A DNA stretch of 64,000 nt, from assembly GCA_963603335.1 (NCBI GenBank), contig CAVCML010000052.1, positions 5,665-69,664 of the forward strand, in the 5' to 3' direction. Positions 1 through 17,531 of the stretch are shown in pieces. The notes below the pieces were generated by a model. It saw only the letters and a list, made by a program, of their open reading frames with translations, was not told the origin of the DNA and searched no databases. The stretch comes from Bacteroidaceae bacterium. GTDB taxonomy: Bacteria > Bacillota > Clostridia > Peptostreptococcales > Anaerovoracaceae. The position numbers and the translations under genes are program-made. Numbering within the stretch: position 1 is the first letter of the stretch; each line of letters opens with the position of its first letter.

Positions 1-786
1 CATGTATTGGGAATTTATGTTGATGTTCATATGACGGAGTTCAAATTGGAATACATCGTTGCAGATGCTTTTGGCAGCGAGAGAAAGCACGAGGAACTTT
101 ATCAGGATACTATGACATATGAATTTATAGAATCCATCATAGAGAAGGTCTTAAAAGAGGATTCTAAAATCAAGAGAATTTCATTTGGGATTCCGGGTGT
201 TACGGACCAAGATGTCGTAGAGGAATGCGATGTAAAGTTTTTAATCGGGATAAATATACGAAAAAGCATCAAGGAGAAATTCGGATTGGAAGCAGATGTA
301 AGAAATGACATGGACTTTATATCATATGGAATTTATAATAATGAGTCCATACATTCGGGAAATCTGGCAACCCTGTTTTTCCCGGAGGAAGACAGCAACT
401 ACGTAGGGGCGGGTTTTGTAATCGACGGAAAGGTGCTTCATGGGTTCTCTCATTATTCCGGAGAGCTTTCATGTGTGGCTGAAGGATTTGGTTTAAGCAG
501 AAAAAGACAAAACGAAATGCTGCATGACCGTGAAGAATTCTGCGAACTCGTTTCTAAAATGGTAATGATTGTTATAGGTACAATCGATCCTGAGAAAATT
601 GTAGTTATGGGAAATGATATTAAACAAAAAGAGATTATGCAGGTGTGGGAACTTTGTAATGAGGTTGTGTCTGAAAAACACATTCCCGACTTATCGGTAG
701 ACAATAATATCGGACAGAATTATTTGAATGGCTTGGTCAAAAACGCCTTGGATAAAGTTCAGTTCCCGATTTCACTGCGAATATAA
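1..786 (+). CDS. ROK-family sugar kinase/regulator-like protein, 5'-truncated by window edge
   Basis: The reading frame is open from nt 1, and the TTG at 7 is probably internal. The glycine-rich segment VGAGFVIDGKVLHGFSHYSGE resembles the ROK signature region. The N-terminal part is not visible. Confidence 0.5.
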   Translation, partial: HVLGIYVDVHMTEFKLEYIVADAFGSERKHEELYQDTMTYEFIESIIEKVLKEDSKIKRISFGIPGVTDQDVVEECDVKFLIGINIRKSIKEKFGLEADVRNDMDFISYGIYNNESIHSGNLATLFFPEEDSNYVGAGFVIDGKVLHGFSHYSGELSCVAEGFGLSRKRQNEMLHDREEFCELVSKMVMIVIGTIDPEKIVVMGNDIKQKEIMQVWELCNEVVSEKHIPDLSVDNNIGQNYLNGLVKNALDKVQFPISLRI

Positions 787-800
787 AGAAATGGGGATTT

Positions 801-3116
801 ATGGATAACGCAAATGATTTTATTATAATCCGCGGGGCACGGGAGAATAATTTAAAAAATATTGATATCAATATACCGAAGGGAAAGATCGTTGTATTTG
901 CAGGGGCTTCCGGTTCAGGGAAATCATCACTGGTTTTCAATACCGTGGCATCGGAGGCAATGCGTGAGCTGTATGACACTTTTCCTCTTTATGTGCGAAA
1001 TAGAATGCCGTATTATCCTGCGGCCGATGTTGAAGAAATCGAAAACTTAACAACGCCGATTATTGTTCGGCAAAGACCTGTGACGGGAGATTTTCGCTCT
1101 ACGGTGGGAACCCTCACGGGAGTCAGCCCAATGCTGCGGCTGCTTTTTTCGCGCTGCGCATCGCCGCATTTGAATTTGTCGAGTGCGTATTCTTTTAACG
1201 ACCCTGCGGGCATGTGTCCTTCGTGCAAGGGAACAGGCAGAATAACGAAGTTTGATTTAAACAAAATTTTTGATAAAAATAAATCTCTGATGCAGGGTGC
1301 GATTCAGCTTCCCGGATTTCAGGTGGGGAGTTATCAGTGGCAGGTATATGCCAATTCAGGCTTTTTTGATTGTGAAAAGCCTCTTAATCAGTACAGCGAA
1401 AACGAGTGGGATCTTTTACTTCACGGTTCCGGAAAAATCGTGAGCGTTAATAACACCACGGGATCGATATGGGCAAAATCGTATAATACAAAGTATGAGG
1501 GACTGCTCGATAAGATTGAGCGTTTATATTTAAAAAAATCTCAATCTGCGGTGAAGGGAACTGCACGAAAAATTCTCAGAGATTTTACCGTTACGGAAGC
1601 CTGTGAGAGCTGCCATGGAAAACGACTGAACGATACAGTGCTTAACAGCCGGTTAAACGGATTCAATATCTGGGAGTTGGGCGAGCTGGAAATATCGGAT
1701 TTGATGGATTTTCTGAACAAACGGCCTGAGGATCTGGGTAAAGAGACGATTTCTAAGATTTCGAAGGTCCTCGAAAATATATGCAGTATAGGACTTGGCT
1801 ATTTGACATTGAACAGAGAAACTCGTTCGCTTTCGGGAGGAGAAGCTCAGCGGCTTAAAATTATCAGTCATTTGACCGGTTCTTTGACCGGACTGATTTA
1901 TATTTTTGATGAACCGAGCAGGGGCCTTCATCCAAAAGATATCGACAGATTGAATAATCTGCTGCTTCAGCTGAAAAAGAAAGGAAACAGCATTCTCGTT
2001 GTGGAACATGATAGAAGCGTGATGGGAATTGCGGATGAAATCGTAGAATTGGGCCCGGGAGCAGGTTCTGAAGGCGGAAACATTGTTTTTCAGGGAACAT
2101 TGCAGGAGTTGAGCAAGGCGAATACTTTAACCGGGAAATGGCTCAGAAAACCGTTGTTATGGAATGTGCGGAAAGAGAAGAACGATGGTGCGGATGCGGT
2201 ACCGAATGAGAATCGGGTGTACCGGATAGAGCATTGCAGTGAGAATAATCTGCAGGATGTTTCGGTTGTGATTCCTAAGAATCAGCTGACGGTTATCAGC
2301 GGTGTTGCAGGTGCCGGAAAAACTACATTGGCATGTGTGGAGCTGCCGAAACGGATTCCGGAGGCAATTCGTATTACACAAGACCCTGTAGGCGCAACGG
2401 AGCGTTCCACACCGGGAACGTATTTGGGCGTTATGGATGATATTCGAAAAACCTTTGCGAAGGCGAATAATGTTGTGCCGGGAATGTTCAGCTTTAATGC
2501 AAAAGGAGCGTGCCCGGACTGTAAGGGAAAAGGAGTTATAGAAACTGAAATGGCATTTTTGGATCCGGTAATTTCCGTTTGCGAGACGTGCGGGGGCAGC
2601 CGATTCAGCTCAAAAGCACTTTCATATACCCTGCATGAAAAAAATATACACGATATTTTAAAGATGACGATTGCAGAAGCAGCAGAGTTTTTTAAGGAAT
2701 ACAAATTTGCTGAAAAGCTTCACAGACTGATTGACGTCGGACTTGAATACATCACATTGGGACAGCCTACATCGACGATGTCCGGTGGAGAGCTGCAGCG
2801 GTTAAAACTGGCCTCCAGATTGAAGTCAAAAGGTGCGGTTTACGTAATGGATGAACCGTCCACCGGACTGCATGGTGAAGATGTATCGGTTCTGATGCGT
2901 TTGATCAGGCAGCTCGTAAACAATGGAAATACAGTTGTTGCGGTGGATAATGATTTTGATGTGATTGCTGAAGCCGACCATATCATTGACCTGGGACCGG
3001 AAGGCGGAAAAGATGGCGGAACTGTTATATTCGAAGGAAGCATAGAGGAACTTTTAGAAACGAAAAACAGGTCGTATACGGCGGAGTATTTTCACAGAGA
3101 ATTAACCGCAAGATAG
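801..3116 (+). CDS. UvrA-like ABC ATPase (short class II / UvrA2-type paralog)
   Basis: 771 aa. N-terminus IIIRGARENNLKNIDINIPKGKIVVFAGASGSGKSSL. Two ABC modules (LSGGEAQRLK..IFDEPS and MSGGELQRLK..VMDEPS). Zn-finger CxxC pairs CPSCKGTG, CESCHGKR, CPDCKGKG, CETCGGSR. It is clearly shorter than canonical UvrA. Confidence 0.85.
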   Translation: MDNANDFIIIRGARENNLKNIDINIPKGKIVVFAGASGSGKSSLVFNTVASEAMRELYDTFPLYVRNRMPYYPAADVEEIENLTTPIIVRQRPVTGDFRSTVGTLTGVSPMLRLLFSRCASPHLNLSSAYSFNDPAGMCPSCKGTGRITKFDLNKIFDKNKSLMQGAIQLPGFQVGSYQWQVYANSGFFDCEKPLNQYSENEWDLLLHGSGKIVSVNNTTGSIWAKSYNTKYEGLLDKIERLYLKKSQSAVKGTARKILRDFTVTEACESCHGKRLNDTVLNSRLNGFNIWELGELEISDLMDFLNKRPEDLGKETISKISKVLENICSIGLGYLTLNRETRSLSGGEAQRLKIISHLTGSLTGLIYIFDEPSRGLHPKDIDRLNNLLLQLKKKGNSILVVEHDRSVMGIADEIVELGPGAGSEGGNIVFQGTLQELSKANTLTGKWLRKPLLWNVRKEKNDGADAVPNENRVYRIEHCSENNLQDVSVVIPKNQLTVISGVAGAGKTTLACVELPKRIPEAIRITQDPVGATERSTPGTYLGVMDDIRKTFAKANNVVPGMFSFNAKGACPDCKGKGVIETEMAFLDPVISVCETCGGSRFSSKALSYTLHEKNIHDILKMTIAEAAEFFKEYKFAEKLHRLIDVGLEYITLGQPTSTMSGGELQRLKLASRLKSKGAVYVMDEPSTGLHGEDVSVLMRLIRQLVNNGNTVVAVDNDFDVIAEADHIIDLGPEGGKDGGTVIFEGSIEELLETKNRSYTAEYFHRELTAR

Positions 3117-3140
3117 TTAATCGCAAAGAAGCAAATTGAA

Positions 3141-3173
3141 AAGGGCAGAACAAAATGTTCTGCCCTTTTTTTG
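3141..3173 (+). terminator. Rho-independent terminator after the uvrA-like gene
   Basis: 11-bp perfect stem AAGGGCAGAAC / GTTCTGCCCTT with a 5-nt loop, followed by a T-run. Confidence 0.8.
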
Positions 3174-3227: not shown

Positions 3228-3257
3228 TTGACAAAGCGTATCTTTCGGAAGTAAAAT
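3228..3257 (+). promoter_or_regulatory. Putative sigmaA promoter of the aminotransferase/B12 operon
   Basis: TTGACA (3228-3233), an 18-nt spacer, then TAAAAT (3252-3257), about 90 nt upstream of the ATG at 3346. Confidence 0.5.
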
Positions 3258-3345: not shown

Positions 3346-4662
3346 ATGGATATGGCAAATTTGTACAAAGAGGCATGTGAATATATGCCGGGAGGAGCTT
3401 CAGCGGGACAAAGATATAACGGCATCCTTGGACATCCGCTTTACCTGGATTCTGCAGATGGGTGCAGGGTTCGTGATATTGAGGGAAATGAATATATCGA
3501 TTATCATGGCGGTTCAGGTGCTGCATTATTCGGTCATAACCATCCGGTGATAAAAGAAGCACTGGTTAAAGCATTGGAACGCGGCTTTTTTATGAATTAC
3601 GACACCACAGATACATTGGAGCTGGCAAAATTGACAAGAGAAATCTTCCCGAGCTGCGAGAAGATCAGACTTGCCAATACGGGATCCGAAGCAACACAGG
3701 GAGCGATTCGCCTGGCACGAGGATACACGGGAAGAGACAAGGTTATTAAATTTGAAGGGCATTTTCATGGAATGCATGAAAGCATATGGTTTAATCACAG
3801 TGCAGTACGTGAAATGGATTCTTTCGGAGAAGTAACTACCGTACCTGATTCGGCGGGATTTGCAAGTGAAGCAAAAGAAAGTGTCATTAATGTGGTATTT
3901 AATGATATCGAGGCTTTAGAGCATGCGGTGAAGAAGTATGAGGGACAGATTGCCTGCATCATTCTGGAACCGATCAGCTTTAACTGCGGTTGTCTTGAAG
4001 CGGAAAAAGAATATTTAAAAAAAGTAAGAGAAATGGCGACCAGAGAAAATATTTTGCTGATCTTTGATGAAGTAATCTGCGGACTTCGCATGAGACCGGG
4101 ATCGGCGCAGCGGTATTATGACGTTTATCCGGATATTACAACCGCTGCAAAGGCAATCGGCGGAGGCCTTCCGATAGCTTTGATCGGCGGAAAGTCGGAA
4201 ATTATGGATCATTTTTCGCCGTTCGGTGAAGTGGTTATGAGTGGTACTTATACGGGATCTCTCATGCCGGTTATGGCTGCTGTGGAATGTATGAAAATGG
4301 CTTTAGCACCGGGATTTTATGATTATTTTGATGCAATCGGAGAGAAATTGTTCCATGGAATAGATGATCTCTTTAAACAGTACGGAATCCCGGGACATGT
4401 GAGAGGCGTGGGCGCCAGATGGGCTATTTATTTTGGCGTGGAAAATCCGGATGATGACTTTGACTTCCGCAGAATCGCCAAAGAATTCAATCGTGATATG
4501 GATAGAAAATTTGTGAGCGAGGCGGTAAAAAACGGGCTTTGGTTCCATGACACATCAAGTGATATTACTCCGGCGCACAGAGCCTTGATGACGACACATA
4601 CGATGGCGGACATTGATGAAACGCTGAATAAAATAAACGATATCTTTAAAACTATCCGTTAG
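3346..4662 (+). CDS. Class-III PLP-dependent aminotransferase (glutamate-1-semialdehyde aminomutase-like)
   Basis: 438 aa. Motifs MPGGASAG, RLANTGSEATQGAIRLARGYTGRDKVIKFEGHFHG and IFDEVICGLR. PLP-lysine context DITTAAKAIGGGLP. Confidence 0.85.
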   Translation: MDMANLYKEACEYMPGGASAGQRYNGILGHPLYLDSADGCRVRDIEGNEYIDYHGGSGAALFGHNHPVIKEALVKALERGFFMNYDTTDTLELAKLTREIFPSCEKIRLANTGSEATQGAIRLARGYTGRDKVIKFEGHFHGMHESIWFNHSAVREMDSFGEVTTVPDSAGFASEAKESVINVVFNDIEALEHAVKKYEGQIACIILEPISFNCGCLEAEKEYLKKVREMATRENILLIFDEVICGLRMRPGSAQRYYDVYPDITTAAKAIGGGLPIALIGGKSEIMDHFSPFGEVVMSGTYTGSLMPVMAAVECMKMALAPGFYDYFDAIGEKLFHGIDDLFKQYGIPGHVRGVGARWAIYFGVENPDDDFDFRRIAKEFNRDMDRKFVSEAVKNGLWFHDTSSDITPAHRALMTTHTMADIDETLNKINDIFKTIR

Positions 4663-4712
4663 AAATTTGAGATAAGGTTAAAGTCCGGAACATTTTTATA
4701 TGGAGTAAAAAG

Positions 4713-6689
4713 ATGAGCAGAATAATCGGAATAGATACAGGAGGAACCTATACGGATCTTGTTGTGATAGATGCGGAGCATAGAGACGTTCTGGCTAAGA
4801 ATAAGACTTTGACGACAAAAACGGATTTGAAGGAATGTATTCGGAAAAGTTTTGACAGCGTTCCGACGGATTTGCTGGATGATATTTCCATGGTATGCCT
4901 TTCAACCACACTCGCCACAAACGCTATCGTAGAGGGGCATGGCTGCAAAGTGGGACTGATTTTAATCGGAGGACGCCCTCGCGGTAAAATGATTTCCAGA
5001 AAGGTTTCTGTCATCAAAGGCAAATACGATATTAAAGGCCGGGTAAAAGAAAATCTTGATACAGAAGAGGTTCAGCAGGTTGTGGAAAGTTATCGCGGAA
5101 GAGTGGATGCAATTGCGGTGTCGGGATACGCAAGTGTTCGTAATCCCAATCACGAGCTTTATGTAAAACAGGTGGTGGAACAGACATTGGGAATTCCGGT
5201 GGCCTGCGCACATGAGCTTACATCCTCGCTGGGATTTTATGATCGAACGGTAACGGTGAATCTCAATGCAAAGCTGATTCCAATGGTATGTGAATTGATG
5301 GATGCCGTACGCAACGTCATGAACAGCTATAATATCAAAGCTCCGTTGATGATTGTCAAAGGAGACGGCAGCCTTATGACGGACATATGTGCACAGAGCA
5401 AACCAATCGAAACAATTCTGTCCGGACCGGCGGCCAGCGTGATTGGCGGCATGTATCTTTCCGGAGAAAACGAAGGTTTTGTTATTGACATCGGAGGAAC
5501 GACAACCGATATCGCTAATGTGACCGATGGTAAGGTGACGATATGTAATGAAGGTGCGCACGTCGGTGGATGGTTTACTCATGTGAGAGCGGCAGAAGTC
5601 TATACTGTCGGTCTAGGAGGCGACAGCAGGATAACGATTGACTCTTCCGGTACAATTCGGATAGGACCGGAAAAATCGATTCCGCTTTCAATGGCTGTTC
5701 AGCAATATCCTGATTTAAGAACGGAATTTAAGGAGCTGAGAAATCACAGCACAGAGAGTTCGTTCAGATTCCGCGATCATGAAGCGTATATATTGATAAA
5801 AAAATATGAGAAGCTTTCTTATAGCGATGAGGAACGCATTATCATAGAAATTCTCAGATATATGCCGCATACGCTGGATTATTTAAAGAGGAATATTAAT
5901 CTTGACAGGCTGAACACGGTTCTGGACAGCCTCGTAAAGGAAGGTGTCATAATGCGAATTTCATTGACACCTACCGATTTGCTGCATCTTACGGGTGAGG
6001 CTGAACTGTGGGACGCGGAAGCTGCAAAGATGACTGTGGAAGCGGCGTGCGGTTTATATAAAAAGAGTGAGGAAGAATTTTTAGACGATGTAAAAAATGT
6101 TATGCTCCGGAATCTGGATGCTTCATTTATTAAGGCAGCACTTTATTTTGACAACAGAGATATGAATCTTGAGGGAAATGACTTTTACGACTATTTTTTA
6201 AACGATTTGTTTTTTAAGCATAAATCAAAAGTTCTTGAGGTTGATTACAGGATTCCCAAAAAACTGATTGGAATAGGAGCTCCTGCCAAGGCCTGGCTGA
6301 CAAAAGCAGGGAAAAATCTCAGCACAAAGGTTTATGTCCCTGAAAATGCGGAAGTTGCAAATGCGATTGGAGCAGCGGTTGGAAAGGCCGTTGAGACAAT
6401 AGAAATCCTAATCCGGCCGGATTCACTTACCGGAAGATATCTGATATATTCTCCGATAGACAGAGCTGACCGAGAGACATTGGAAGAAGCGACAGAATAT
6501 GCTTTAAAGATAGGAGGTGAATGTATTAAGAGACTGGCAGAGAATCGTGAATACAGCATAAAACACGAGAAAGAGGACATGTACTTTGAAGATATCATAA
6601 ATGAAACATCCATTTTTATGGAACGCAAAGTACTGTTATCTGCACAATTCCGACATAGGAAAGGAGGTCAGAAATGGACCAAGGATTAA
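4713..6689 (+). CDS. Hydantoinase/oxoprolinase-family (ASKHA) ATPase; candidate B12-enzyme reactivase/chaperone
   Basis: 658 aa. It has two actin-like phosphate loops, IIGIDTGGTYTDLVVID and VIDIGGTTTDIA. Its 3' end overlaps the next gene by 16 nt. The reactivase role is inferred from context only. Confidence 0.75.
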   Translation: MSRIIGIDTGGTYTDLVVIDAEHRDVLAKNKTLTTKTDLKECIRKSFDSVPTDLLDDISMVCLSTTLATNAIVEGHGCKVGLILIGGRPRGKMISRKVSVIKGKYDIKGRVKENLDTEEVQQVVESYRGRVDAIAVSGYASVRNPNHELYVKQVVEQTLGIPVACAHELTSSLGFYDRTVTVNLNAKLIPMVCELMDAVRNVMNSYNIKAPLMIVKGDGSLMTDICAQSKPIETILSGPAASVIGGMYLSGENEGFVIDIGGTTTDIANVTDGKVTICNEGAHVGGWFTHVRAAEVYTVGLGGDSRITIDSSGTIRIGPEKSIPLSMAVQQYPDLRTEFKELRNHSTESSFRFRDHEAYILIKKYEKLSYSDEERIIIEILRYMPHTLDYLKRNINLDRLNTVLDSLVKEGVIMRISLTPTDLLHLTGEAELWDAEAAKMTVEAACGLYKKSEEEFLDDVKNVMLRNLDASFIKAALYFDNRDMNLEGNDFYDYFLNDLFFKHKSKVLEVDYRIPKKLIGIGAPAKAWLTKAGKNLSTKVYVPENAEVANAIGAAVGKAVETIEILIRPDSLTGRYLIYSPIDRADRETLEEATEYALKIGGECIKRLAENREYSIKHEKEDMYFEDIINETSIFMERKVLLSAQFRHRKGGQKWTKD

Positions 6690-8431
6690 AGGAATATATC
6701 CAAAGCCTCATCCCGGAAGGATTTCCGGATGGGAAAGAATTGGTCGAAGAGGGGCGTAAGATGGCTCCGGACATTAAGTGGAACAAGTCCAGATTTTTAA
6801 AAGAAACCGGGTATAAAAGCCATCTTGATTACAGAAAAGAAAATTTAAAGAACGGTAAACAAACATATCAGCTTCTTGTAGGACTCTCAACTTTGGAAGA
6901 GGAACTGGATGCGATTAAGAAAATCGATGAATTTCATAAGCGTACAGGTTTTGAAGTCCGGTCGATGCAGTCAATTCCAAGTCAGCTGGTAGGTCTTGCG
7001 CCGGAATATTGGGACGGAGCGCCGAAACCGACGAGTTATCTGATGGAAAAAGAGGAGGATTGGCTGGCCCATACGGATGCAGCTCCGGTGGATTGCTGTT
7101 GGCAGGATTGGCATCTGGCGAGCCCCAATAATCTGAAGGAAACCCATTATGCACTTAAAGCGGGAACCTCGCGGATGGGATGCTTTTCCACTTTCGTTTG
7201 GGAATATCCGGGATACAATGAGGAAAAGAAACGCTTTTCCGATATGTTTCGAACCATGGGCATTTTATCGGCGAAAAAGGAAGAGGGACTGGATTGTGTC
7301 ACATATCCGGAGGATGGACTTCCGGGGTATTTTATGGATGTAGTTTCTTATGTGGGATATGAGATGATAGAGCACTATATCATTGAGGATTTGTGCGGTG
7401 CTCGAATGGCATTGTCTTACGGGGGTCTGTTATCGGAGATTGTACCGCGTATGGCTTTTGTTCTGGCAATGGAAAAGCTGTACGGAACTGAAGAACATCC
7501 ATTTACGACGTACTATAACGGTTCCACAACCGAACAGTGGGATCACGATATAGAAACAAACTATGGATTGGGTGCATCTGAAATGCTGATTGAATCAATC
7601 GTTAACTTAAAGTATAATCTGCCGATTGTAATCAGTCCGGTTTCTATTACAGAGGCTCTGCGTGTTCCGACACTGGATGAACTGTTTAATATTGTAAAGT
7701 GCGGAATCGGCGTGGAGCGAAAAGCAAAAGAATGGCTTAAAATTATTGATTTTACTAAGTTTGAAGAAACACGCGATCTGCTGATTGAAAAGGGAACAGA
7801 ATTCTATAATAATGTTATGACGGCATTTCGGGAAGCAGGAGTCAATGTAGACGATCCTCTGGAAATGGTTATGGTTCTCAGACGATTTGATCCGGTGAGA
7901 TTTGAACAGGAATTTCATCCGAGCCAGCAGGAATTCGGCGGATATAAGCCGTATGTACCGACTGTACTCGGAAAAGAAACGATGGAGAAAAAGGATAAGA
8001 TCGTTTTGGATTTGAAGAGAAAGGGATATGACGGAGCTTTAAAGGGGAAAAAAATCATATGCGGATCGGCTGACGGACACAGCTATGGGCTGATGCTTAT
8101 TGACAATGTGTGGTCAGAAATGAGTGCGGATGTTATCAATAGCGGTACGTACATGGAGCCTTCTTTTATTCTGGATCTGGCGGATGAGGAAGATGCCGAT
8201 GTGGTTTGTGTCAGTGTCCATTGCGGACAGGTTCTGGATTATGCGAAACAATTAAAAGAACAGGAAAAAAAGCGCGGCAAGAAATACAATGTGGTTCTTG
8301 GAGGAATGCTGAACGCAATGCTCACGGGAAATACTGAACCTGTAGATGTTTCGGAAATGATTGAAGATATGGGAATCTGCGCAAGCAATGATTTTGAAAA
8401 ACAGATTAATTTTATGAATCATCATAAATGA
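6674..8431 (+). CDS. Cobalamin-binding-domain protein: about 460-aa unassigned N-terminal domain plus C-terminal B12-binding Rossmann domain
   Basis: 585 aa. DGHSYG (DxHxxG, nt 8072-8089), then 41 residues to SVH (the SxL position), then 26 residues to GG (nt 8300-8305). This matches the canonical base-off/His-on spacing DxHxxG-41-SxL-26/28-GG. RBS AAGGAGG lies 6 nt before the ATG. Confidence 0.75.
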   Translation: MDQGLKEYIQSLIPEGFPDGKELVEEGRKMAPDIKWNKSRFLKETGYKSHLDYRKENLKNGKQTYQLLVGLSTLEEELDAIKKIDEFHKRTGFEVRSMQSIPSQLVGLAPEYWDGAPKPTSYLMEKEEDWLAHTDAAPVDCCWQDWHLASPNNLKETHYALKAGTSRMGCFSTFVWEYPGYNEEKKRFSDMFRTMGILSAKKEEGLDCVTYPEDGLPGYFMDVVSYVGYEMIEHYIIEDLCGARMALSYGGLLSEIVPRMAFVLAMEKLYGTEEHPFTTYYNGSTTEQWDHDIETNYGLGASEMLIESIVNLKYNLPIVISPVSITEALRVPTLDELFNIVKCGIGVERKAKEWLKIIDFTKFEETRDLLIEKGTEFYNNVMTAFREAGVNVDDPLEMVMVLRRFDPVRFEQEFHPSQQEFGGYKPYVPTVLGKETMEKKDKIVLDLKRKGYDGALKGKKIICGSADGHSYGLMLIDNVWSEMSADVINSGTYMEPSFILDLADEEDADVVCVSVHCGQVLDYAKQLKEQEKKRGKKYNVVLGGMLNAMLTGNTEPVDVSEMIEDMGICASNDFEKQINFMNHHK

Positions 8432-8444
8432 AAGGAGTAGTGTT

Positions 8445-9527
8445 ATGCAAAACAAAAGCGCATTGAATTTAAATGCAGAGCAGGCGTATATCAATAAGAA
8501 AGTTGGAGTGGCAAAAGTCGGTATGGTGCTTTCCTGGGTATCATCGATTACAGCTATCCTGTTCGGAATTTTTAATACTGCGGCATCATCGCTGATTGAA
8601 GCGGATACAGGTTCGGATCTCAGCGGTCCGCTGAATCAGGCGATTGTCTGCATTACAATTCTTGGAATAGGAGAAATTTTTGCAGGAATTATGACTCTGG
8701 TTTATAATGCGGCCAAGGGCAAGGGAATCAAGGAATTCAAGAGAATGACCGGATTTAAAATTTCCTGGATGATGCTGTTGTCAGCTTTGGCTGCAGGTCC
8801 TCTTGCTACAGGACTGCAGGTAACTGCATACAGCATGGCGGGAATAACTTATGTGACGGCTATTCTGGCTCTGTCGCCTGTATTGACAGCGATTTTGGGA
8901 AGAATTATATTCAAAGAAAATCTCAGTAAACGTGCAGTTTTCGGAATCCTGCTCGTAGTAGCGGGTGCTCTGGTAACAACGTTTATCGGAACTCCGGATA
9001 CGGCAGGAAGCAACTTCATGGTAGGAATTATCCTGGCCTGCATTTGCCCGATTGGATTTGCATTGGAAGGAATGTTCTCAACTTATGCGGGAGATTTAAT
9101 CGATCCTATTGAAGGATGCGGCTTCTACAGAACTATTTGTTCCGGAATCATGGGACTTGCTGCAATGCTTATTATTGCGGGATGTTCCGGAAATATCGGA
9201 GTATGGACCGCAACGGTCAAAGCGGTATTTACAAATCCTTTAACGCTCGTATTTGTAATACTTTTCGCAGCATTTGTAGCACTTTCCTACAACACGACTT
9301 ATGTGGGATTCAATAAGTGCGGTCCGAGCCGCTGCCTGGCAATCGTATACACTGCACCGATATGGTCGATTCCAATCGGTTTGATTTTCGCACAGCTGAT
9401 GCCGAAATTCTATTCTTATGACGTAACCGGAGCAGCTATTATCGGTGCCGTAGTTGTAACGATCGGTGTAATTCTGGTTGTAATGAAGCCGTCGGAGCTG
9501 TTCAAGCTGCGTGATGTAGAAGAATAG
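8445..9527 (+). CDS. DMT-superfamily (EamA/GRP-like) membrane permease
   Basis: 360 aa, about 10 hydrophobic helices with an internal two-fold repeat. It lies 13 nt downstream of the B12-domain gene. Confidence 0.6.
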   Translation: MQNKSALNLNAEQAYINKKVGVAKVGMVLSWVSSITAILFGIFNTAASSLIEADTGSDLSGPLNQAIVCITILGIGEIFAGIMTLVYNAAKGKGIKEFKRMTGFKISWMMLLSALAAGPLATGLQVTAYSMAGITYVTAILALSPVLTAILGRIIFKENLSKRAVFGILLVVAGALVTTFIGTPDTAGSNFMVGIILACICPIGFALEGMFSTYAGDLIDPIEGCGFYRTICSGIMGLAAMLIIAGCSGNIGVWTATVKAVFTNPLTLVFVILFAAFVALSYNTTYVGFNKCGPSRCLAIVYTAPIWSIPIGLIFAQLMPKFYSYDVTGAAIIGAVVVTIGVILVVMKPSELFKLRDVEE

Positions 9528-9580
9528 GAAGATGTTTAGCAAAAATAGATTGCATTATCGGATGAAGAAAGGAGCATGAC

Positions 9581-9874
9581 ATGCAGTTACCTATGAAAAC
9601 GAGAATATTTCAGTACGCATTAGAAAAGCAGGGTCCGTTCACAAAGTATGATGTGGAAAGAGATCTGAAAAAAGAGTATCCGGATGAACGGCTGTTTTCG
9701 CTTGCGACAATAGATGATTATCTCAATCAGCTGATGGTAGTGGGTTTTATCGGAAAGGAACAGATTGAATTCGATGCAGACGGAGAACTTCTGATTACCT
9801 TTAAGGCCACTGCCTATGGCCAGACGAGATATAAATATGTCAAGGGGAAAGGTCTGTATGGAGCTGCACAGTAA
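9581..9874 (+). CDS. Small hypothetical protein (97 aa)
   Basis: An ORF with RBS GAAAGGAG upstream. It is soluble and charged, and I recognise no motif. Confidence 0.4.
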   Translation: MQLPMKTRIFQYALEKQGPFTKYDVERDLKKEYPDERLFSLATIDDYLNQLMVVGFIGKEQIEFDADGELLITFKATAYGQTRYKYVKGKGLYGAAQ

Positions 9875-9892
9875 AAAAGTTTATAAAACCAC

Positions 9893-9921
9893 TTGACATT
9901 TTCATAACAGTATATTATTAT
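9893..9921 (+). promoter_or_regulatory. Putative sigmaA promoter of the aldehyde dehydrogenase gene
   Basis: TTGACA (9893-9898), a 17-nt spacer, then TATTAT (9916-9921). Confidence 0.55.
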
Positions 9922-9990
9922 GACTATTGTAAAAAATATTTATAAAATTATAAAATAAAAAAAGAAAAAACAAACGGGAGGGCAAAGGAT

Positions 9991-11502
9991 ATGAAGATGA
10001 TGGATGTTATTGATGAATCCACCGGAAAAGTTGTAGGAAGCGTACCTAATTATGACGGCGCTGAAATTGCAGCAATGGTTGATACAGCATTTGAAGCACA
10101 GCCGAAATGGGAAAAAGTTCCGCTTTTTGAAAGAGGTCAGATTTTATATAAGTTCTGTGATTTAGTGGATGAACACAGAGAAGAAATTGCACTGGCCATG
10201 TCAAATGATATGGGTAAACCGATTTTACAGTCCAGAGCTGAAACCACATATGCAGCAGAAATCGGAAGAGCCAATATTGAAGTAGGAAAACACATGTATG
10301 GTGAAGTGCTGCAGGACAGCAGCGAAGGCTATGAAAATCACGTGGTATTGGTAAGACACGAAGCACTTGGCGTTGTTGCCGGAGTAATTCCGTTCAATTA
10401 CCCGGTTGAATTGACAATTCAGAAAATGGTACCTGCACTGCTGATGGGTAACACGATGGTAATCAAAGCGGCAACAACTGCTCCGTGCAGCGTTAAAAAG
10501 CTGATTGATTTGGCTCACGAAGCCGGCGTGCCGAAAGAATGTCTGCACTTCATCACTGCAAGCAGAGAAGACTGCACCGAATATCTGCTGAAGAATCCTA
10601 AGATTGCATGTATTGCAATGACAGGAAGCACCGCAGGCGGTACAGAGATGATGCATGACGCAGCTCCTACAGTTAAAAAAGTCGTTCTGGAGTTGGGCGG
10701 AAACGATCCTCTGATTATTACGGAAGAAGTAGCGGATGATCCGGACCAGATGATTAAGGCAATCGAATGTCTTGGCTGGGGAAGAATCATTGAAAATAAC
10801 GGACAGGTATGTGCTTCGCCTAAGAGAACCATCGTTCACGAAAAGGCAAAGGATGCATTCGTACAGTGTCTGCTGAAATTCCTTGAAGGACTGAAGAGAG
10901 GACATGCGACCGACCCTAGCGCAGAACTGACAAGACTGGTTTCAACAAAAGCAGCAGAGAGAGTTGAAGCACAGATCCAGCATACGGTTGATCAGGGTGC
11001 CAAAATTATCTACGGCGGAAAGAGAAACGGATGCATTATGGATGTTACAGTCCTGGATAATGTTACAAAGGATATGGATGTTGCCAAGGATATGGAAATC
11101 TTCGGACCTGTAGTTCCAATCATTACATTCAAGACGGATGAGGAAGCGGTAGCAATCGCAAACCAGAGCAAATACGGACTCAGCGCATCTGTTATAACGC
11201 AGGATCTGAAGAAGGCATGGTATTACACAGAGAATATCGAATCCTCAGCTGTATGGGTAAACGGTTCCAGTGCTCTGAGACATAACGATCAGCCGTTTGG
11301 CGGATGCAAGGGAACAGGAATCGGTAATGAAGGCGCCGGCTATTCATGTGCAGAATTTACAAGATTAAAGACTTATGGATTCTGTGATGTATCTCCGAAG
11401 GAAAATTTATATAAGCATGAGGACGGAATGGGAGATTTCCTTGCGTTCGACAGATACACCTCAGAGGTTAGAAAGCTTGCGGAAAGTATCATAAAAAAGT
11501 AA
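9991..11502 (+). CDS. NAD(P)-dependent aldehyde dehydrogenase
   Basis: 503 aa. ALDH motifs LELGGNDP (catalytic Glu), NNGQVCASPKR (catalytic Cys) and PFGGCKGTGIGNEG. Confidence 0.9.
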   Translation: MKMMDVIDESTGKVVGSVPNYDGAEIAAMVDTAFEAQPKWEKVPLFERGQILYKFCDLVDEHREEIALAMSNDMGKPILQSRAETTYAAEIGRANIEVGKHMYGEVLQDSSEGYENHVVLVRHEALGVVAGVIPFNYPVELTIQKMVPALLMGNTMVIKAATTAPCSVKKLIDLAHEAGVPKECLHFITASREDCTEYLLKNPKIACIAMTGSTAGGTEMMHDAAPTVKKVVLELGGNDPLIITEEVADDPDQMIKAIECLGWGRIIENNGQVCASPKRTIVHEKAKDAFVQCLLKFLEGLKRGHATDPSAELTRLVSTKAAERVEAQIQHTVDQGAKIIYGGKRNGCIMDVTVLDNVTKDMDVAKDMEIFGPVVPIITFKTDEEAVAIANQSKYGLSASVITQDLKKAWYYTENIESSAVWVNGSSALRHNDQPFGGCKGTGIGNEGAGYSCAEFTRLKTYGFCDVSPKENLYKHEDGMGDFLAFDRYTSEVRKLAESIIKK

Positions 11503-11643
11503 TAAAAAGTAACGAATAAGTAAGTAATAAGTAATAAGTGTTGGGAAGTGAACTGCAGAATGAATCCTCCTAATACAAAGATCATTGATAATGCCGAATA
11601 GTAAAATAAATGTAAACTAATAACAATGCAGTTCATGAAGAAA

Positions 11644-11666
11644 AGCCCGGTTTAAGCCGGGCTTTT
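11644..11666 (+). terminator. Rho-independent terminator after the ALDH gene
   Basis: Stem AGCCCGG / CCGGGCT with a 6-nt loop, flanked by AAA and TTT. Confidence 0.65.
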
Positions 11667-11688
11667 CGCAACAAAGGAGATGAAACAT

Positions 11689-12240
11689 ATGAGTAAAAAA
11701 ATTCTTGTATTAAAAGGAAGCCCTCGTAAGAACGGAAACAGCGATATGATGGCGGATGCATGGATTAAAGGCGCGGAAACAAACGGACATCAGGTCAAGG
11801 TAATTCGAACTGCGGATTGTAATCTGAGCGGATGCAGAGCATGCAACGGCTGCTGGAATTCCGGAGGAAACTGCGTGATAAAGGATGATATGACCGAGAT
11901 AGAGAAGGCTTTGGAAGAAGCAAATGTGCTGGTAGTGGCATCGCCGTTATACTGGTCGATGGTTCCTTCCGAGCTGAAAGCCGTTTTTGACCGCATATAT
12001 CAGTATGATCCTCAGAACGGCGGAAAACATCTTGCGATTGAAGATGCAGTGTTATTATCCTGCGGAGAAACAGAATCCGAAGAAGATTTTGACATGATAA
12101 AAAAGTTTTTCGCCGGAGCTGTGGAATTCAACGGCATGAAGGTTAAACAGGTACTGATCGCTCCGAATATAAATCACAAAGGCGATATAACAGGGAGTGC
12201 TTATTTGAAAAAAGCGGAAGAACTGGGGCTTGAAATTTAA
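11689..12240 (+). CDS. Flavodoxin-fold NAD(P)H-dependent FMN reductase-like protein
   Basis: KILVLKGSPRKNGNS and ASPLYW motifs. I chose the start at 11689 (9 nt after AGGAG) rather than the ATG at 11680. Confidence 0.65.
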   Translation: MSKKILVLKGSPRKNGNSDMMADAWIKGAETNGHQVKVIRTADCNLSGCRACNGCWNSGGNCVIKDDMTEIEKALEEANVLVVASPLYWSMVPSELKAVFDRIYQYDPQNGGKHLAIEDAVLLSCGETESEEDFDMIKKFFAGAVEFNGMKVKQVLIAPNINHKGDITGSAYLKKAEELGLEI

Positions 12241-12285
12241 AGAAGTTTTAAATGAATGAGTGTGATGAGACAAGGAGAGTGCATC

Positions 12286-13320
12286 ATGAAATACATTACA
12301 TTAAATGAAAATAAGCCTTTTGATATCATTTTCTTAGGCAGAGTAACCATTGATTTCAATCCGGCTTACAGCGAGTCCGTCAAAGAAGAATTCAAACCGT
12401 TAAAAGATGTCCACTATTTCGAGAAATTTGTGGGCGGATCACCGGCGAACACTGCGGTAGGAGTCACAAAACACGGATTAAAGGCCGGTTTTTTAGGAAA
12501 GGTTTCGGATGATGCCTTTGGAGATTACGTTGCAGAGTATCTTGAAGGCAGGGGAATAGATACCTCTCATGTCAGCCGGTGTACTCATGGCGAGAAGCTT
12601 GGCCTTACATTTACCGAAATGCTTTCATCCAAAGAGAGCCATATTCTGATGTACAGAAACATGGCGGCGGATTTGCAGCTTAGCGTGGATGATATCGATG
12701 AAGATTATATTAAATCGACAAAAGCGATTTTGGTATCAGGTACCGCTCTGGCAGAGAGCCCATCGAGGGAAGCTGTTTTGAAGGCGGTAATGCTGGCGAA
12801 AAAGAACGATACGGCGATTATTTTTGATATCGACTATCGTGAATACAACTGGAAGAACAAGGACGAGATTTCGATTTATTATTCCATGGTCGCAAAAGAA
12901 GCGGATATCATCATGGGATCGCGTGAGGAGTTCGACTTGACGGAGCGGCTGATTCAGGAAGGCATGACCGATAAGGAGAGTGCTGCGTACTGGCACGGCT
13001 GCCGCGCTAAAATTGTAGTGATAAAGCATGGGATGAAAGGATCTGCGGCATATACCGCGGACGGAGAAGTCTATCGGATCAAGCCGTTCCCGGTGGAAGC
13101 CAGAAAAGGCTTCGGCGGAGGCGACGGATACAGCTCGGGATTTTTATATGGAATCTATCAGGGATGGGATTTGATAGATTGTCTTGAATTCGGAAGTGCG
13201 GAAGCATCTATGATGGTGAGGAGCAATAATTGCTCGGATGCTTTGCCGGATACAGAAGAAGTGAAAGCATTTATTCAGAAAGAAAAAGAAATGTATGGAG
13301 AGATGGTTGCAAAAGTCTGA
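12286..13320 (+). CDS. iolC: PfkB-family sugar-acid kinase, 5-dehydro-2-deoxygluconokinase (IolC)-like
   Basis: 344 aa from the ATG at 12286 (RBS AAGGAG). By recollection it closely resembles B. subtilis IolC, including VGGSPAN, LVSGTALAESPSREAVLKAV and GGGDGYSSGFLYG. Confidence 0.75.
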   Translation: MKYITLNENKPFDIIFLGRVTIDFNPAYSESVKEEFKPLKDVHYFEKFVGGSPANTAVGVTKHGLKAGFLGKVSDDAFGDYVAEYLEGRGIDTSHVSRCTHGEKLGLTFTEMLSSKESHILMYRNMAADLQLSVDDIDEDYIKSTKAILVSGTALAESPSREAVLKAVMLAKKNDTAIIFDIDYREYNWKNKDEISIYYSMVAKEADIIMGSREEFDLTERLIQEGMTDKESAAYWHGCRAKIVVIKHGMKGSAAYTADGEVYRIKPFPVEARKGFGGGDGYSSGFLYGIYQGWDLIDCLEFGSAEASMMVRSNNCSDALPDTEEVKAFIQKEKEMYGEMVAKV

Positions 13321-14229: not shown

Positions 14230-14256
14230 AAAGGCGAATGCATTGCGCATTCGCCT
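14230..14256. terminator. Bidirectional hairpin terminator
   Basis: Perfect 12-bp stem AAAGGCGAATGC / GCATTCGCCTTT with a 3-nt loop, between convergent transcription units. Confidence 0.75.
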
Positions 14257-14315
14257 TTAACGTCATTTGAAAAATCAGGAGCGATTTTCATTTCACTTTG
14301 CTGTCGCCAAAATCA

Positions 14316-17511: not shown

Positions 17512-17531
17512 AAATAAAAAAAGAAAGGGAA

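Follow-up and report, generated by a model that had tools for sequence, protein, structure and literature searches.

Does the gene cluster that begins at position 3346 of the window (the whole 64,000-nucleotide stretch of DNA that was analyzed) encode a B12-dependent enzyme of a new kind, and if it does, what might that enzyme do and why does an ATPase accompany it? The earlier note had put forward a B12-dependent isomerase or eliminase, possibly new and coupled to an ATPase, in an undescribed pathway, and this core claim survived the in silico tests that were run. This operon of a gut bacterium makes a good candidate for a B12 reaction of a new kind, and its genes, their motifs, the predicted fold and the conserved neighbourhood are documented below.

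Organization of the gene cluster

The genes and signals of the region are as follows (window positions):

7-786, plus strand: ROK-family regulator gene, probably 5'-truncated by the window edge (judged from its length)
801-3116, plus strand: UvrA paralog, 771 aa, in a transcription unit of its own (TIGR00630 uvrA, 693.6 bits; cut-off 729.8)
3138-3170, plus strand: intrinsic terminator downstream of the UvrA paralog (15-bp stem, 6 G-C pairs, then a T run)
3228-3257, plus strand: predicted sigma-70-like operon promoter, TTGACA-18-TAAAAT (11/12 positions; consensus match only)
3346-4662, plus strand: class-III PLP enzyme, glutamate-1-semialdehyde (GSA)-aminomutase-like, 438 aa (PF00202, Aminotran_3, 2.7e-63)
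4713-6689, plus strand: HyuA-type ASKHA ATPase, 658 aa, proposed accessory protein (reactivase or chaperone) (PF05378, PF01968)
6674-8050, plus strand: N-terminal, putatively catalytic part of the B12 enzyme, predicted TIM barrel (about residues 60-330) and helical linker (334-450) (AF2 model, Foldseek)
8051-8431, plus strand: C-terminal Rossmann cobalamin-binding domain of the B12 enzyme, residues 460-585, base-off/His-on (PF02310, 5.6e-10)
8445-9527, plus strand: EamA/DMT permease, 360 aa (PF00892, 2.7e-13)
9581-9874, plus strand: functionally unassigned 97-aa protein that constantly accompanies the permease
9893-9921, plus strand: second promoter-like site, 5' of the aldehyde dehydrogenase gene, TTGACA-17-TATTAT (11/12 positions; consensus match only)
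9991-11502, plus strand: NAD(P)-dependent aldehyde dehydrogenase, 503 aa (PF00171, 1e-129)
11680-12240, plus strand: flavodoxin-like NAD(P)H:FMN reductase, 186 aa (PF03358, PF02525)
12256-13320, plus strand: IolC, 5-dehydro-2-deoxygluconokinase, 354 aa (TIGR04382, 376.4 bits, above the cut-off of 300)
13347-14186, plus strand: class-II aldolase, IolJ-like (PF01116, 1.4e-89; NF005288, 389.8 bits vs. a cut-off of 396)
14230-14258, strand not given: terminator hairpin closing the cluster (13-bp stem, 6 G-C pairs)

The five co-directional genes between 3346 and 9874 that the earlier note described are all present, with the promoter ahead of them and the 16-nt overlap of the ATPase and B12 genes; the B12 gene starts at the ATG at 6674, which is preceded by an AGGAGG within the 3' end of the ATPase gene. 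The promoter is the top-scoring sigma-70-like site in the first 16.5 kb, and the hairpin at 3138-3170 is the strongest terminator-like site found. The functional unit is, however, larger than first noted: it runs past 9874 through the aldehyde dehydrogenase, FMN reductase and IolC genes to the IolJ-like aldolase (GTG start at 13347, preceded by AAGGAGG), beyond whose terminator hairpin lies an amino-acid permease gene on the opposite strand, and it reaches upstream across the UvrA paralog to the ROK regulator. The regulator's open reading frame is 259 codons long vs. about 340 in relatives, and by BLASTP its product groups with the ROK/HTH_24 proteins encoded upstream of the cluster at loci L005, L009, L003 and L006. 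The same UvrA paralog (51-65% identity) adjoins the cluster in 9 non-redundant loci.

The best PDB matches of the 438-aa PLP enzyme are GSA aminomutases (1.6e-77), in agreement with the first description of this gene, and its best NCBIfam match is HemL (TIGR00713) at 356.6 bits, under the cut-off of 527.3. It carries the PLP-lysine motif TTAAKAIGGG, and its orthologs (56-80% identity) adjoin the B12 gene in relatives. The DMT permease was likewise correctly named, and an EamA permease lies beside the B12 gene in 21 loci; homologs of the 97-aa protein, for which Pfam, NCBIfam and PDB sequences gave no significant match, come after EamA in 18 loci, distant subfamilies included. The closest solved structures to the aldehyde dehydrogenase are succinate-semialdehyde dehydrogenases, and its orthologs (69-94% identity) lie within the cluster in 11 related loci. 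The FMN reductase, possibly a cob(II)alamin reductase, recurs in 9 non-redundant loci, and a CobA adenosyltransferase lies inside the cluster in L006, L059 and L063.

A new B12 protein family on a known scaffold

The C-terminal B12-binding domain that the earlier note recognized in the 585-aa protein is confirmed: the only Pfam match of the whole product is confined to residues 465-546 (PF02310), and D467-x-H469-x-x-G472, S514 and G543-G544 do not vary among 37 homologs. The nearest sequences to this domain are GlmS (9.4e-6) and HcmB, while the GlmS family profile gives only 33 bits vs. its cut-off of 136. The B12-binding_2 cap, which accompanies PF02310 in methyltransferase corrinoid proteins, was not detected by Pfam search, and use of adenosylcobalamin by the protein appears probable. 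The family is small and self-contained (a set of 1.84 billion representative proteins yields 326 clusters of it at the 50% identity level), and it was not described in the literature searched.

Can the N-terminal part be assigned, which the earlier note could not do? By sequence it cannot: residues 1-459 have no Pfam match even at E = 10 and none among PDB sequences, and nothing in NCBIfam matches the ~455-aa N-terminal part. By fold it can. The AF2 model (pLDDT 89.5) has eight beta/alpha units forming a TIM barrel joined to the Rossmann domain, and Foldseek matches it to methylmalonyl-CoA mutase (MCM; E = 2e-13), ornithine aminomutase (OAM; 4e-10), GlmE (2e-9) and KamD (9e-7). The best whole-chain match is MCM (TM-score 0.47-0.49, sequence identity 10-12%), and the highest TM-score among matches restricted to the barrel is that of GlmE (0.52). 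The predicted N-terminal domain is thus assignable, at the level of fold, to the TIM barrel of adenosylcobalamin mutase and aminomutase large subunits, and the B12 protein is therefore a new family on a known scaffold and not a new fold. As in MCM, the barrel, the linker and the B12 domain follow one another in a single chain, but the protein does not match PF01642 of the methylmalonyl-CoA/acyl-CoA mutases, and the cluster has no MeaB-type G protein or CoA-related genes.

To our knowledge, every known His-on TIM barrel/Rossmann enzyme is a mutase or aminomutase, so on the scaffold alone an isomerase is the default. The B12 protein could be a true carbon-skeleton mutase (of the glutamate mutase or 2-methyleneglutarate mutase type) acting on a CoA-free amino or keto compound, with the aminotransferase creating or removing the sp2 or amino centre that enables the 1,2-shift, and the aldehyde dehydrogenase oxidizing an aldehyde made by transamination; we consider this unlikely. 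Its architecture and His-on motif are those of mutases, and the GlmS and GlmE matches above point the same way, but Pfam and PDB sequence searches place it in neither the GlmE nor the MCM family. Glutamate mutase resembles the window system in its TIM-barrel catalytic domain and small His-on Rossmann B12 domain, in its CoA-free substrate (counted here as shared) and in an ASKHA accessory gene (GlmL/MutL) alongside; it differs in having two chains (GlmE and GlmS) where the window protein has both domains fused, and in a 460-aa MutL where the partner here is a 658-aa HyuA-type protein. GlmE also has an arginine-rich carboxylate site. From the homolog alignment and the model, the invariant polar residues of our barrel lie at or close to strand ends and are Asp, Glu, Asn, Tyr, Thr and His, with few Arg; R187 and R259 are located away from them and the listed strand-end set contains no arginine, so a site of the glutamate mutase kind is not evident.

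A PLP-dependent aminomutase (lysine-5,6 or ornithine-4,5 type), whose shifted amine would be removed by the aminotransferase or an amine dehydrogenase, would share the fold class, with the ornithine and lysine aminomutases (OAM and KAM) among the fold matches above. We judge it very improbable. The PLP lysine of KamE and OraE is found 11 residues past the cobalt-binding histidine (K144/H133 and K629/H618), a position (H469+11) occupied here by W480; none of the protein's lysines is invariant across the 37 homologs, and the nearly invariant K201, between helix 184-200 and strand 207-210, is read from the model as lying on the barrel face opposite the active site. Aminomutase-domain Pfam matches are also absent.

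The partner ATPase

The 658-aa product is a hydantoinase-family ASKHA ATPase, as the earlier note had it: Hydant_A_N spans residues 5-157 and Hydantoinase_A 178-320, and the phosphate (nucleotide-binding) motifs are intact and invariant. Its AF2 model (pLDDT 85.6) aligns full-length with HyuA of N-methylhydantoinase, acetophenone carboxylase, acetone carboxylase and caprolactamase (TM-scores 0.56-0.64), its fold matches to catalytic HyuA subunits reach E values down to 2e-28, and its best NCBIfam match is caprolactamase alpha. The Pfam EutA and DDR reactivase families gave no match at E <= 0.01, and DdrA/GdrA is missing among the top 50 fold matches. Characterized HyuA subunits, those of hydantoinase/oxoprolinase among the relatives with these domains, are catalytic and phosphorylate substrates, and all those known to us work with a HyuB-type subunit. 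The window ATPase, unlike these, has no HyuB (Hydantoinase_B was found in no gene-annotated locus); its constant partner is the B12 protein, whose gene it adjoins in 47 of 56 non-redundant loci, over subfamilies of 41-86% identity.

Is the ATPase then itself catalytic? It might use ATP to phosphorylate a substrate carbonyl or enol or to open a lactam, the B12 protein replacing HyuB and processing the activated intermediate. The full-length likeness to catalytic HyuA, the intact motifs, the caprolactamase match, the translational coupling of the two genes and their near-universal pairing in loci where no HyuB is seen would all fit, and in the caprolactamase system a class-III aminotransferase and an aldehyde dehydrogenase act next. 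This is nevertheless decidedly unlikely: CobA and a regulator stand between the ATPase and B12 genes in L006, no ATPase was seen near the B12 gene in L007, and relatives exchange the ATPase for other proteins, one distant B12-family member being fused to, or directly preceding, a true MutL/GlmL domain (3e-44) and another adjoining an SRP54-like GTPase. Such exchange is the pattern expected of a cofactor chaperone, not of a catalytic subunit, and we know of no precedent for an ATP-coupled adenosylcobalamin reaction. The MutL/GlmL partner of that one relative also speaks for the mutase discussed above, and ATPase homologs repeatedly show a precomputed MutL (PF13941) match, which is sub-threshold in the window protein.

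From the gene context and the GlmL/MutL fusion in a relative, we infer that the ATPase is a dedicated accessory of the B12 enzyme; the reactivase or chaperone role first suggested for it is thus favoured by context, whereas its structure is fully HyuA-type and unlike DdrA. It would exchange damaged cofactor at the expense of ATP, or load cofactor, in the manner of GlmL/MutL, EutA and DdrAB.

Conserved neighbourhood of the B12 gene

The same gene set is found again in the same order in other genera, so the cluster is more than a chance arrangement. Three non-homologous aldehyde oxidizers recur, namely aldehyde dehydrogenase, a tungsten-type AFOR and a Mo-type aldehyde oxidoreductase (the last labelled by eye from sequence). 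Where at least 5 kb is available on each side of the B12 gene (33 loci), at least one of these occurs in 21 loci, a class-III aminotransferase or Ord-like amine dehydrogenase in 25, and alanine or glutamate dehydrogenase in 14. Both the amine/carbonyl enzyme and the aldehyde oxidizer thus recur across relatives in non-homologous forms. The former argues for an amine intermediate; the latter argues for an aldehyde intermediate, the more so as it is present in two compact operons that lack an aminotransferase, L026 (EamA-IolJ-IolC-B12-ATPase-ALDH) and L029 (the same set plus an SDR). The IolC and IolJ-like pair adjoins the B12 gene in L001, L008, L026 and L029, and IolC and IolJ accompany it in only 5 of the 56 loci. 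Other recurring neighbours are ROK or GntR regulators, sugar-type ABC transporters, and IolB-like (in distant subfamilies) and IolM-like genes; together with IolC, IolJ and the Arg-poor polar barrel these suggest a sugar-like substrate.

These contexts bear on the carbon-skeleton mutase in both directions. Several loci have an Ord-like amine dehydrogenase next to the B12 gene, reminiscent of the ornithine pathway, where an Ord-type amine dehydrogenase acts after the B12 isomerase (the adjacent Ord-like dehydrogenase or aminotransferase would equally suit an aminomutase). On the other hand, the cluster has no methylaspartase-like follow-up gene such as accompanies glutamate mutase, and in L026 and L029 IolC and IolJ stand in direct connection with the B12 gene and an aldehyde dehydrogenase, a gene content for which a pure isomerase would be insufficient starting from a hexose or hexitol.

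Could the cluster instead be biosynthetic, with an amino-deoxy compound as its product, the EamA protein as exporter and the UvrA paralog as a means of self-protection? An aminotransferase with a radical enzyme follows the logic of amino-sugar and deoxy-sugar biosynthesis, and the exporter-type DMT protein and UvrA paralog are conserved neighbours. However, the regulators are of repressor type (ROK, GntR), uptake ABC systems and EutH-like transporters occur, the aldehyde oxidizers, IolC, IolJ and IolB-like enzymes feed central metabolism, and the labels given to recurrent clusters of neighbours include no glycosyltransferase, NRPS or PKS (most open reading frames that occur once being left unannotated). 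We judge biosynthesis very improbable.

A proposed reaction and pathway

Our preferred reading, to which we give a probability of roughly 0.45, is that an adenosylcobalamin eliminase-type enzyme with a HyuA-type accessory serves the ROK-controlled catabolism of a sugar or (amino)polyol, with entry into the lower inositol pathway. Gene 6674-8431 would encode the single-chain catalytic subunit of an undescribed adenosylcobalamin-dependent radical enzyme family, in which a substrate-binding TIM barrel is fused to a base-off/His-on cobalamin domain, and the FMN reductase (plus CobA in relatives) would regenerate adenosylcobalamin. The reaction type and substrate suggested by the neighbourhood are a 1,2-shift of the eliminase type at the terminal vicinal diol or amino-alcohol of a sugar-like amine or polyol, which would shed ammonia or water and give a deoxy-aldehyde, as do ethanolamine ammonia-lyase and diol dehydratase. 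The aldehyde dehydrogenase would oxidize this to a 2-deoxy acid, toward 2-deoxy-5-keto-gluconate; IolC would phosphorylate the product and the IolJ-like aldolase cleave it. By stoichiometry, a hexose or hexitol substrate with the aldehyde dehydrogenase as the only oxidizing enzyme could give 2-deoxy-5-keto-gluconate only through loss of water in the B12 step. The class-III PLP enzyme would interconvert amine and carbonyl at a different step, either forming the keto group of 2-deoxy-5-keto-gluconate or adding a transient amine as leaving group. The imported amino compound of the earlier note is accordingly not established, as the amine could be transient and made by the aminotransferase.

Several points weaken this reading: the ATPase is structurally HyuA, IolC and IolJ accompany so few of the loci, and in L064 (a C. 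difficile-type variant with the B12 gene, ATPase, an EutH-like transporter and an amine dehydrogenase) no aldehyde dehydrogenase was found nearby. The polar core of the barrel is identical in loci with and without the aminotransferase, so a dedicated ammonium-binding residue is not indicated. The aldehyde could also arise from the action of the aminotransferase on a terminal amine, and not from the B12 step.

The working analogy is with ethanolamine ammonia-lyase and EutA, and with diol or glycerol dehydratase and DdrAB/GdrAB, where a radical 1,2-shift and elimination give an aldehyde that a dedicated dehydrogenase oxidizes, with an ATP-dependent reactivase alongside and cobalamin reduction and adenosylation genes near. 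Those enzymes belong to unrelated sequence families and gave neither fold nor sequence matches to the B12 protein; the eliminases known to us (EutBC, PduCDE, GldABC) are all base-on, whereas the B12 protein is base-off/His-on, and the window cluster has no microcompartment genes. The transient-amine variant resembles the logic of DesI/DesII in desosamine biosynthesis, in which the amine formed by transamination of a keto group is lost as ammonia through a radical enzyme, leaving a deoxy-carbonyl; DesII is, however, a biosynthetic radical SAM enzyme acting on a TDP-sugar, and there is no homology to the window system. With the lower myo-inositol pathway (IolB, IolC, IolJ) the cluster has IolC and an IolJ-like aldolase in common, but the upper genes iolG, iolE and iolD are missing from it and appear to be replaced by those of the aminotransferase, the B12 enzyme and the aldehyde dehydrogenase.

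Organization of the gene cluster

The earlier note on this DNA described an operon of five co-directional genes, and all five open reading frames were reproduced at the same coordinates; the promoter that it placed at 3228-3257 (TTGACA-18-TAAAAT) is the best promoter-like match in the first 16.5 kb, the region scanned. The 16-nt overlap of the ATPase and B12 genes also stands, with the ATG of the B12 gene lying 8 bases past an AGGAGG within the ATPase gene. The functional unit is, however, larger than these five genes and extends both upstream and downstream of them, as follows:

7-786, + strand: ROK regulator upstream of the operon, probably cut by the window edge
801-3116, + strand: UvrA paralog (771 aa), upstream; its score is just under the uvrA cut-off
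3138-3170, + strand: strong terminator, after the UvrA paralog and upstream of the 3228-3257 promoter-like match
3346-4662, + strand: class-III PLP enzyme, the aminotransferase (PF00202, 2.7e-63)
4713-6689, + strand: ATPase (658 aa)
6674-8431, + strand: B12 protein (585 aa)
8445-9527, + strand: EamA permease
9581-9874, + strand: small protein (97 aa)
9893-9921, + strand: second promoter-like site, near-consensus, preceding the aldehyde dehydrogenase gene
9991-11502, + strand: aldehyde dehydrogenase, downstream on the same strand (domain searches)
11680-12240, + strand: flavodoxin-like FMN reductase, downstream on the same strand
12256-13320, + strand: IolC (5-dehydro-2-deoxygluconokinase; TIGR04382 376.4 bits, above the cut-off of 300)
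13347-14186, + strand: IolJ-type class-II aldolase, also downstream on this strand
14230-14258, no strand assigned: terminator hairpin that closes the cluster, together with a convergent permease gene

The stretches 9875-9990 and 11503-11679 are highly AT-rich spacers. The first contains the 9893-9921 promoter-like site, and the second, 3' of the aldehyde dehydrogenase gene, contains short direct repeats (taagtaataagtaataagt, ~11517-11540) and a GC-rich hairpin (11643-11668); because of these features the extended cluster probably comprises three transcription units. No cobalamin riboswitch was found, and no Rfam family reached its threshold anywhere in the window. Beside the cluster, 14481-20251 holds genes for an amino-acid permease (on the opposite strand), a DUF6597-containing AraC-type regulator, a class-V aminotransferase and a sugar kinase of the FGGY family; the remaining window carries housekeeping genes unrelated to the cluster.

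The first gene of the operon had been called glutamate-1-semialdehyde-aminomutase-like, and its product does contain the PLP-lysine motif as well as the class-III domain. HemL is its closest family, but its scores fall below the HemL cut-offs (TIGR00713 356.6 bits against 527.3, NF000818 354 against 398), and by sequence it is a paralog of HemL type. The DMT permease was confirmed by domain search as an EamA permease, and the 97-aa protein, listed earlier as of unknown function, gave no significant family match in Pfam or NCBIfam. The EamA permease is present in 21 loci and a ~90-aa soluble protein in 18, and the two are adjacent wherever gene order was inspected, distant subfamilies included.

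The B12 protein represents a new family on a predicted mutase-like scaffold

The C-terminal B12-binding domain is the sole Pfam match of the protein (PF02310, residues 465-546, 39.6 bits against a cut-off of 32.1). Its Rossmann domain carries the cobalamin motif of the His-on AdoCbl isomerase class, DxHxxG...SxL...GG, and D467-G-H469-S-Y-G472, S514 and G543-G544 do not vary among the 37 sequences aligned. A PDB search with the B12-family profile matched B12 domains alone, with GlmS best at 9.4e-6. Residues 1-459 have no Pfam match even at E <= 10, and NCBIfam, phmmer and profile searches of PDB sequences returned nothing beyond the B12 domain. The statement that the N-terminal domain cannot be assigned is thus upheld at the level of sequence and not at that of predicted fold, which is a known TIM-barrel scaffold. 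The AlphaFold2 model built from the 37-sequence alignment (pLDDT 89.5, pTM 0.88) has a predicted eight-stranded beta/alpha barrel at ~60-330, a helical linker at 334-450 and the Rossmann domain at 460-585, so the (beta/alpha)8 barrel packed on a B12 domain that marks the isomerase class, with eight strand-helix units, is present in the model.

A fold search with the N-terminal part had been recommended, and Foldseek against the PDB retrieved methylmalonyl-CoA mutase (E = 2e-13, TM 0.47-0.49), ornithine 4,5-aminomutase (4e-10), GlmE (2e-9, TM 0.52 across about 425 columns) and KamD (9e-7) as predicted structural neighbours, each with probability 1.00 and at 9-14% identity. No B12 eliminase is among the top 50 Foldseek matches.

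Is this a family of its own? A homolog search returned 150 sequences, of which the 120 listed are 47-100% identical and nearly all about 585 aa long, and their names in the sources are merely "cobalamin-dependent protein" or similar. An exhaustive HMMER search of 1.84 billion representatives, in which the profile covered the N-terminal 452 residues, gave 326 clusters (79 at E <= 1e-30; full-length members about 560-620 aa) and retrieved the family itself alone; the ten distant members examined have PF02310, in one case a MutL domain, or nothing. Judged by the model and these searches, the B12 protein constitutes a new family, built on a scaffold that is already known. In a scan of one representative genome per species (185,579 species) it occurs at 56 loci. 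Most of the hosts are Clostridia sampled from the gut or from anaerobic digesters; others are Megasphaera, Planctomycetota, Spirochaetia, Nostocoides and Peribacillus or Priestia. The B12 gene has two or three paralogs in many genomes, which suggests that the family has diversified over several substrates. Such sets (L008/L035/L048; L028/L031; L007, L025 and L038) mostly have an ATPase gene for each B12 gene, and sometimes lie inside one 20-kb stretch with differing companion genes.

Comparison with known cobalamin enzymes

None of the five classes compared here accommodates the protein. Glutamate mutase is approached through TIGR01501 (GlmS), at 33.3 bits against the required 135.8, and the N-terminal part is unmatched. 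Unlike the acyl-CoA mutases (MCM, ICM, HCM, ECM) it has no PF01642 match and scores 26.5 bits against 57.45 for TIGR00640, and the window cluster has no gene for a G-protein chaperone of the MeaB type. Ethanolamine ammonia-lyase and diol/glycerol dehydratase are distinguished by the lack of any EutB/EutC or PduCDE match in Pfam, in NCBIfam or among the top 50 fold matches, which lowers the likelihood that the protein is one of these enzymes, not that it resembles them in mode of action. Methyltransferase corrinoid proteins and CarH-type sensors are a poor fit as well: MetH folds match at TM 0.24-0.41 only, and there are no methyltransferase neighbours.

An aminomutase of the lysine or ornithine type (KamDE, OraSE), in which the B12 protein itself would carry PLP, is unlikely. 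In KamE/OraE the PLP lysine lies 11 residues past the cobalt-binding histidine (K144/H133, K629/H618); here the equivalent position 480 (H469+11) is Trp, and the family has no invariant lysine in the 37-homolog alignment, in which many N-terminal polar residues are invariant. A possible homolog that was considered is 2-methyleneglutarate mutase, which has the same domain order and an N-terminal part that is likewise not known to belong to any other family. Nothing in homolog names or inspected neighbourhoods favours homology to it, and the nicotinate-fermentation genes that would be expected to accompany it are absent from the neighbourhoods inspected.

CobA adenosyltransferase is encoded inside the clusters of three loci (L006, L059, L063) and a flavin reductase in the window cluster, and the B12 protein has no PF02607 match to the B12-binding_2 cap that is typical of methyl-corrinoid proteins. 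From these nearby genes, the missing cap and the lack of a methyltransferase we infer that the cofactor is adenosylcobalamin.

The ATPase partner

The assignment of the 658-aa protein to the hydantoinase/oxoprolinase family was borne out (PF05378 104 bits, PF01968 101 bits, both ASKHA phosphate motifs present), the Pfam match being limited to residues 5-320. Its AlphaFold2 model (pLDDT 85.6) resembles HyuA-type subunits over its whole length with TM 0.56-0.64 (N-methylhydantoinase, acetophenone carboxylase, acetone carboxylase, caprolactamase); other ASKHA proteins are weakly matched, with DdrA/GdrA outside the top 50 fold matches. GlmL/MutL models score below threshold (PF13941 24.7 bits against 27, NF040745 26 against 475), although precomputed PF13941 matches recur among its homologs, whose names are "hydantoinase/oxoprolinase family protein" only. 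No characterised HyuA protein is known to work without a HyuB subunit, and no Hydantoinase_B gene is found in the window or in loci with precomputed Pfam annotation. By sequence, then, the ATPase fits the HyuA definition, lacks the obligatory partner and is under the GlmL/MutL threshold; if it acts as proposed here, it would provide the first case of a HyuA-type protein that functions in the absence of HyuB.

Irrespective of which other genes are present, the ATPase gene adjoins that of the B12 protein in 47 of 56 non-redundant loci. Among distant relatives the NTPase differs: one on L065 (P0285, 2692-5726) has a true MutL/GlmL domain (E = 3e-44), fused or directly downstream (fused/frameshifted), and another (L067, 5676-10938) adjoins an SRP54-like GTPase, the locus also carrying genes for a radical SAM enzyme and a DAP-epimerase-like protein. 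Such swapping among different NTPases is expected of an accessory role, and together with the constant pairing it leads us to favour the suggestion of the earlier note that the ATPase is a cofactor chaperone or reactivase. That it is instead catalytic, coupling ATP to the reaction, is possible in view of its full HyuA fold.

Gene neighbourhoods across loci

Open reading frames of 63 loci and of the first 22 kb of the window were clustered, and the gene set around the B12 gene, whose context across homologs had been marked for analysis, recurs in other loci. Orthologs of at least 53% identity form a subfamily that retains the ROK regulator, ATPase, B12 gene, EamA permease and small protein, FMN reductase, aminotransferase (56-80% identity) and aldehyde dehydrogenase (69-94%), often with the UvrA paralog and a glutamate dehydrogenase. 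Within the same clade, the C. difficile locus and L014 have an Ord-like amine dehydrogenase in place of the aminotransferase, and a EutH-like transporter. The distant subfamilies (41-48% identity) have the B12-ATPase pair with a generic class-III aminotransferase, alanine dehydrogenase, Zn-dependent (IolM-like), SDR and Gfo-type dehydrogenases, an IolB-like isomerase, glyoxalases, a sugar-type ABC transporter and a GntR regulator; their aldehyde oxidiser is an ALDH, a tungsten-type AFOR or a Mo-type oxidoreductase (this third type was assigned by visual inspection of its sequence). One compact operon without an aminotransferase (L026) reads EamA-IolJ-IolC-B12-ATPase-ALDH-GntR, and L029 has the same set plus an SDR, also with no aminotransferase.

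Neighbours were counted in the 33 loci where the B12 gene is flanked on both sides by 5 kb or more: the ATPase is present in 28/33, an amine/carbonyl enzyme in 25/33, an aldehyde oxidiser in 21/33 and alanine or glutamate dehydrogenase in 14/33. Two functions recur, the interconversion of amine and carbonyl and the oxidation of an aldehyde to an acid, each replaced non-homologously between loci, and there are links to IolC, IolJ and IolB.

Several loci have further features. The C. difficile ortholog cluster, present in some assemblies, contains at L064 an Opp-type ABC transporter, ROK, ATPase, B12 gene, EutH-like transporter, Ord-like amine dehydrogenase, Macro-domain protein and alpha/beta hydrolase, with no aldehyde dehydrogenase nearby. 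At L023 and L033 a ~820-aa glycyl-radical enzyme and its activase directly adjoin the B12 gene (at L037 the activase only), and therefore two different radical systems share one locus at L023 and L033. A distant relative on L066 (5918-12828) lies beside malonyl-CoA decarboxylase and acyl-CoA synthetase.

Proposed reaction and pathway

We put at about 0.8 the probability that these genes represent a family of cobalamin-dependent enzymes that is served by its own ATPase and lies in a catabolic cluster. The suggestion of a new B12-dependent isomerase or eliminase is thereby sustained, with the corrections described. The presence of repressors, uptake systems and catabolic end enzymes makes a biosynthetic cluster unlikely.

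What might the B12 step produce? Aldehyde oxidisers persist in operons that have no aminotransferase, which suggests that the step itself makes the aldehyde; eliminase-type chemistry yielding a deoxy-aldehyde is the form that we give slightly short of an even chance. From the regulators and transporters, and the scarcity of arginines among the invariant barrel residues (D129, D145, Y211, D214, D222, Y229, E233, N282, T285, N296, E303, T326, E327), we infer a neutral or cationic polyol or sugar as substrate. The polar core is identical in subfamilies with and without the aminotransferase, and no candidate ammonium-binding residue separates them. The scaffold, the proximity to GlmS/GlmE and the Ord-like neighbours would suit a true carbon-skeleton mutase, a reading weakened by the aminotransferase-free operons carrying IolC and IolJ and by a barrel with no evident arginine-rich carboxylate site.

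For a hexose or hexitol, only water loss followed by aldehyde oxidation would match 2-deoxy-5-keto-gluconate, on which IolC acts, in composition. In that case the aminotransferase (elsewhere the amine dehydrogenase, SDR or Zn-dependent dehydrogenase) would make the 5-keto group, a 2-amino-2-deoxy-hexitol being one conceivable precursor. Alternatively, the same enzymes might introduce an amine temporarily, to be expelled by the radical enzyme in the manner of DesI/DesII, alanine or glutamate dehydrogenase recycling the ammonia and the NADH of the aldehyde dehydrogenase; 5-keto-fructose could be converted to 2-deoxy-5-keto-gluconate in this way by exactly the window enzymes. These proposals are illustrations that balance, not findings, and confidence in any specific substrate is low: several fit the stoichiometry (5-keto-fructose, 2-amino-2-deoxy-hexitols, hexitols) and none is asserted, and routes from glucosamine cannot be balanced by the enzyme set of the window. 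The boldest version, which we regard as improbable, is a new B12 reaction, radical deoxygenation of a sugar or polyol through a transient amine with the first HyuA-type reactivase or ATP-coupled partner; it would be regiospecific on a His-on mutase scaffold, with a net nitrogen-catalytic conversion of ketose to 2-deoxy-aldonate.

We rate the B12 protein as having, in its model, structural features of the His-on AdoCbl isomerase class in a pathway context not described before; the gene set is undescribed in the full-text literature searched, which excludes most subscription journals, so that a prior description is possible. The PF02310-type AdoCbl isomerases are known for about ten reaction types, a number static for more than a decade, and a new catalytic family, if true, would add a reaction to coenzyme-B12 chemistry. 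The setting is unusual: the context is sugar- or polyol-like, the ATPase partner is non-canonical, and a genome can carry several paralogs, for the most part in gut anaerobes. With relatives in Megasphaera, Oscillospiraceae, Ruminococcus and some C. difficile, the system could represent a B12-dependent nutrient niche in gut microbiomes, and could account for iolC and iolJ that lack the upper inositol pathway. Its presence in the aerobic, genetically tractable Peribacillus and Priestia makes it testable.

The UvrA paralog lies between the ROK regulator and the operon, and might guard against reactive carbonyl or glycating intermediates. Relatives 51-65% identical to it lie beside the B12 cluster in 9 non-redundant loci of several genera, once on the opposite strand.
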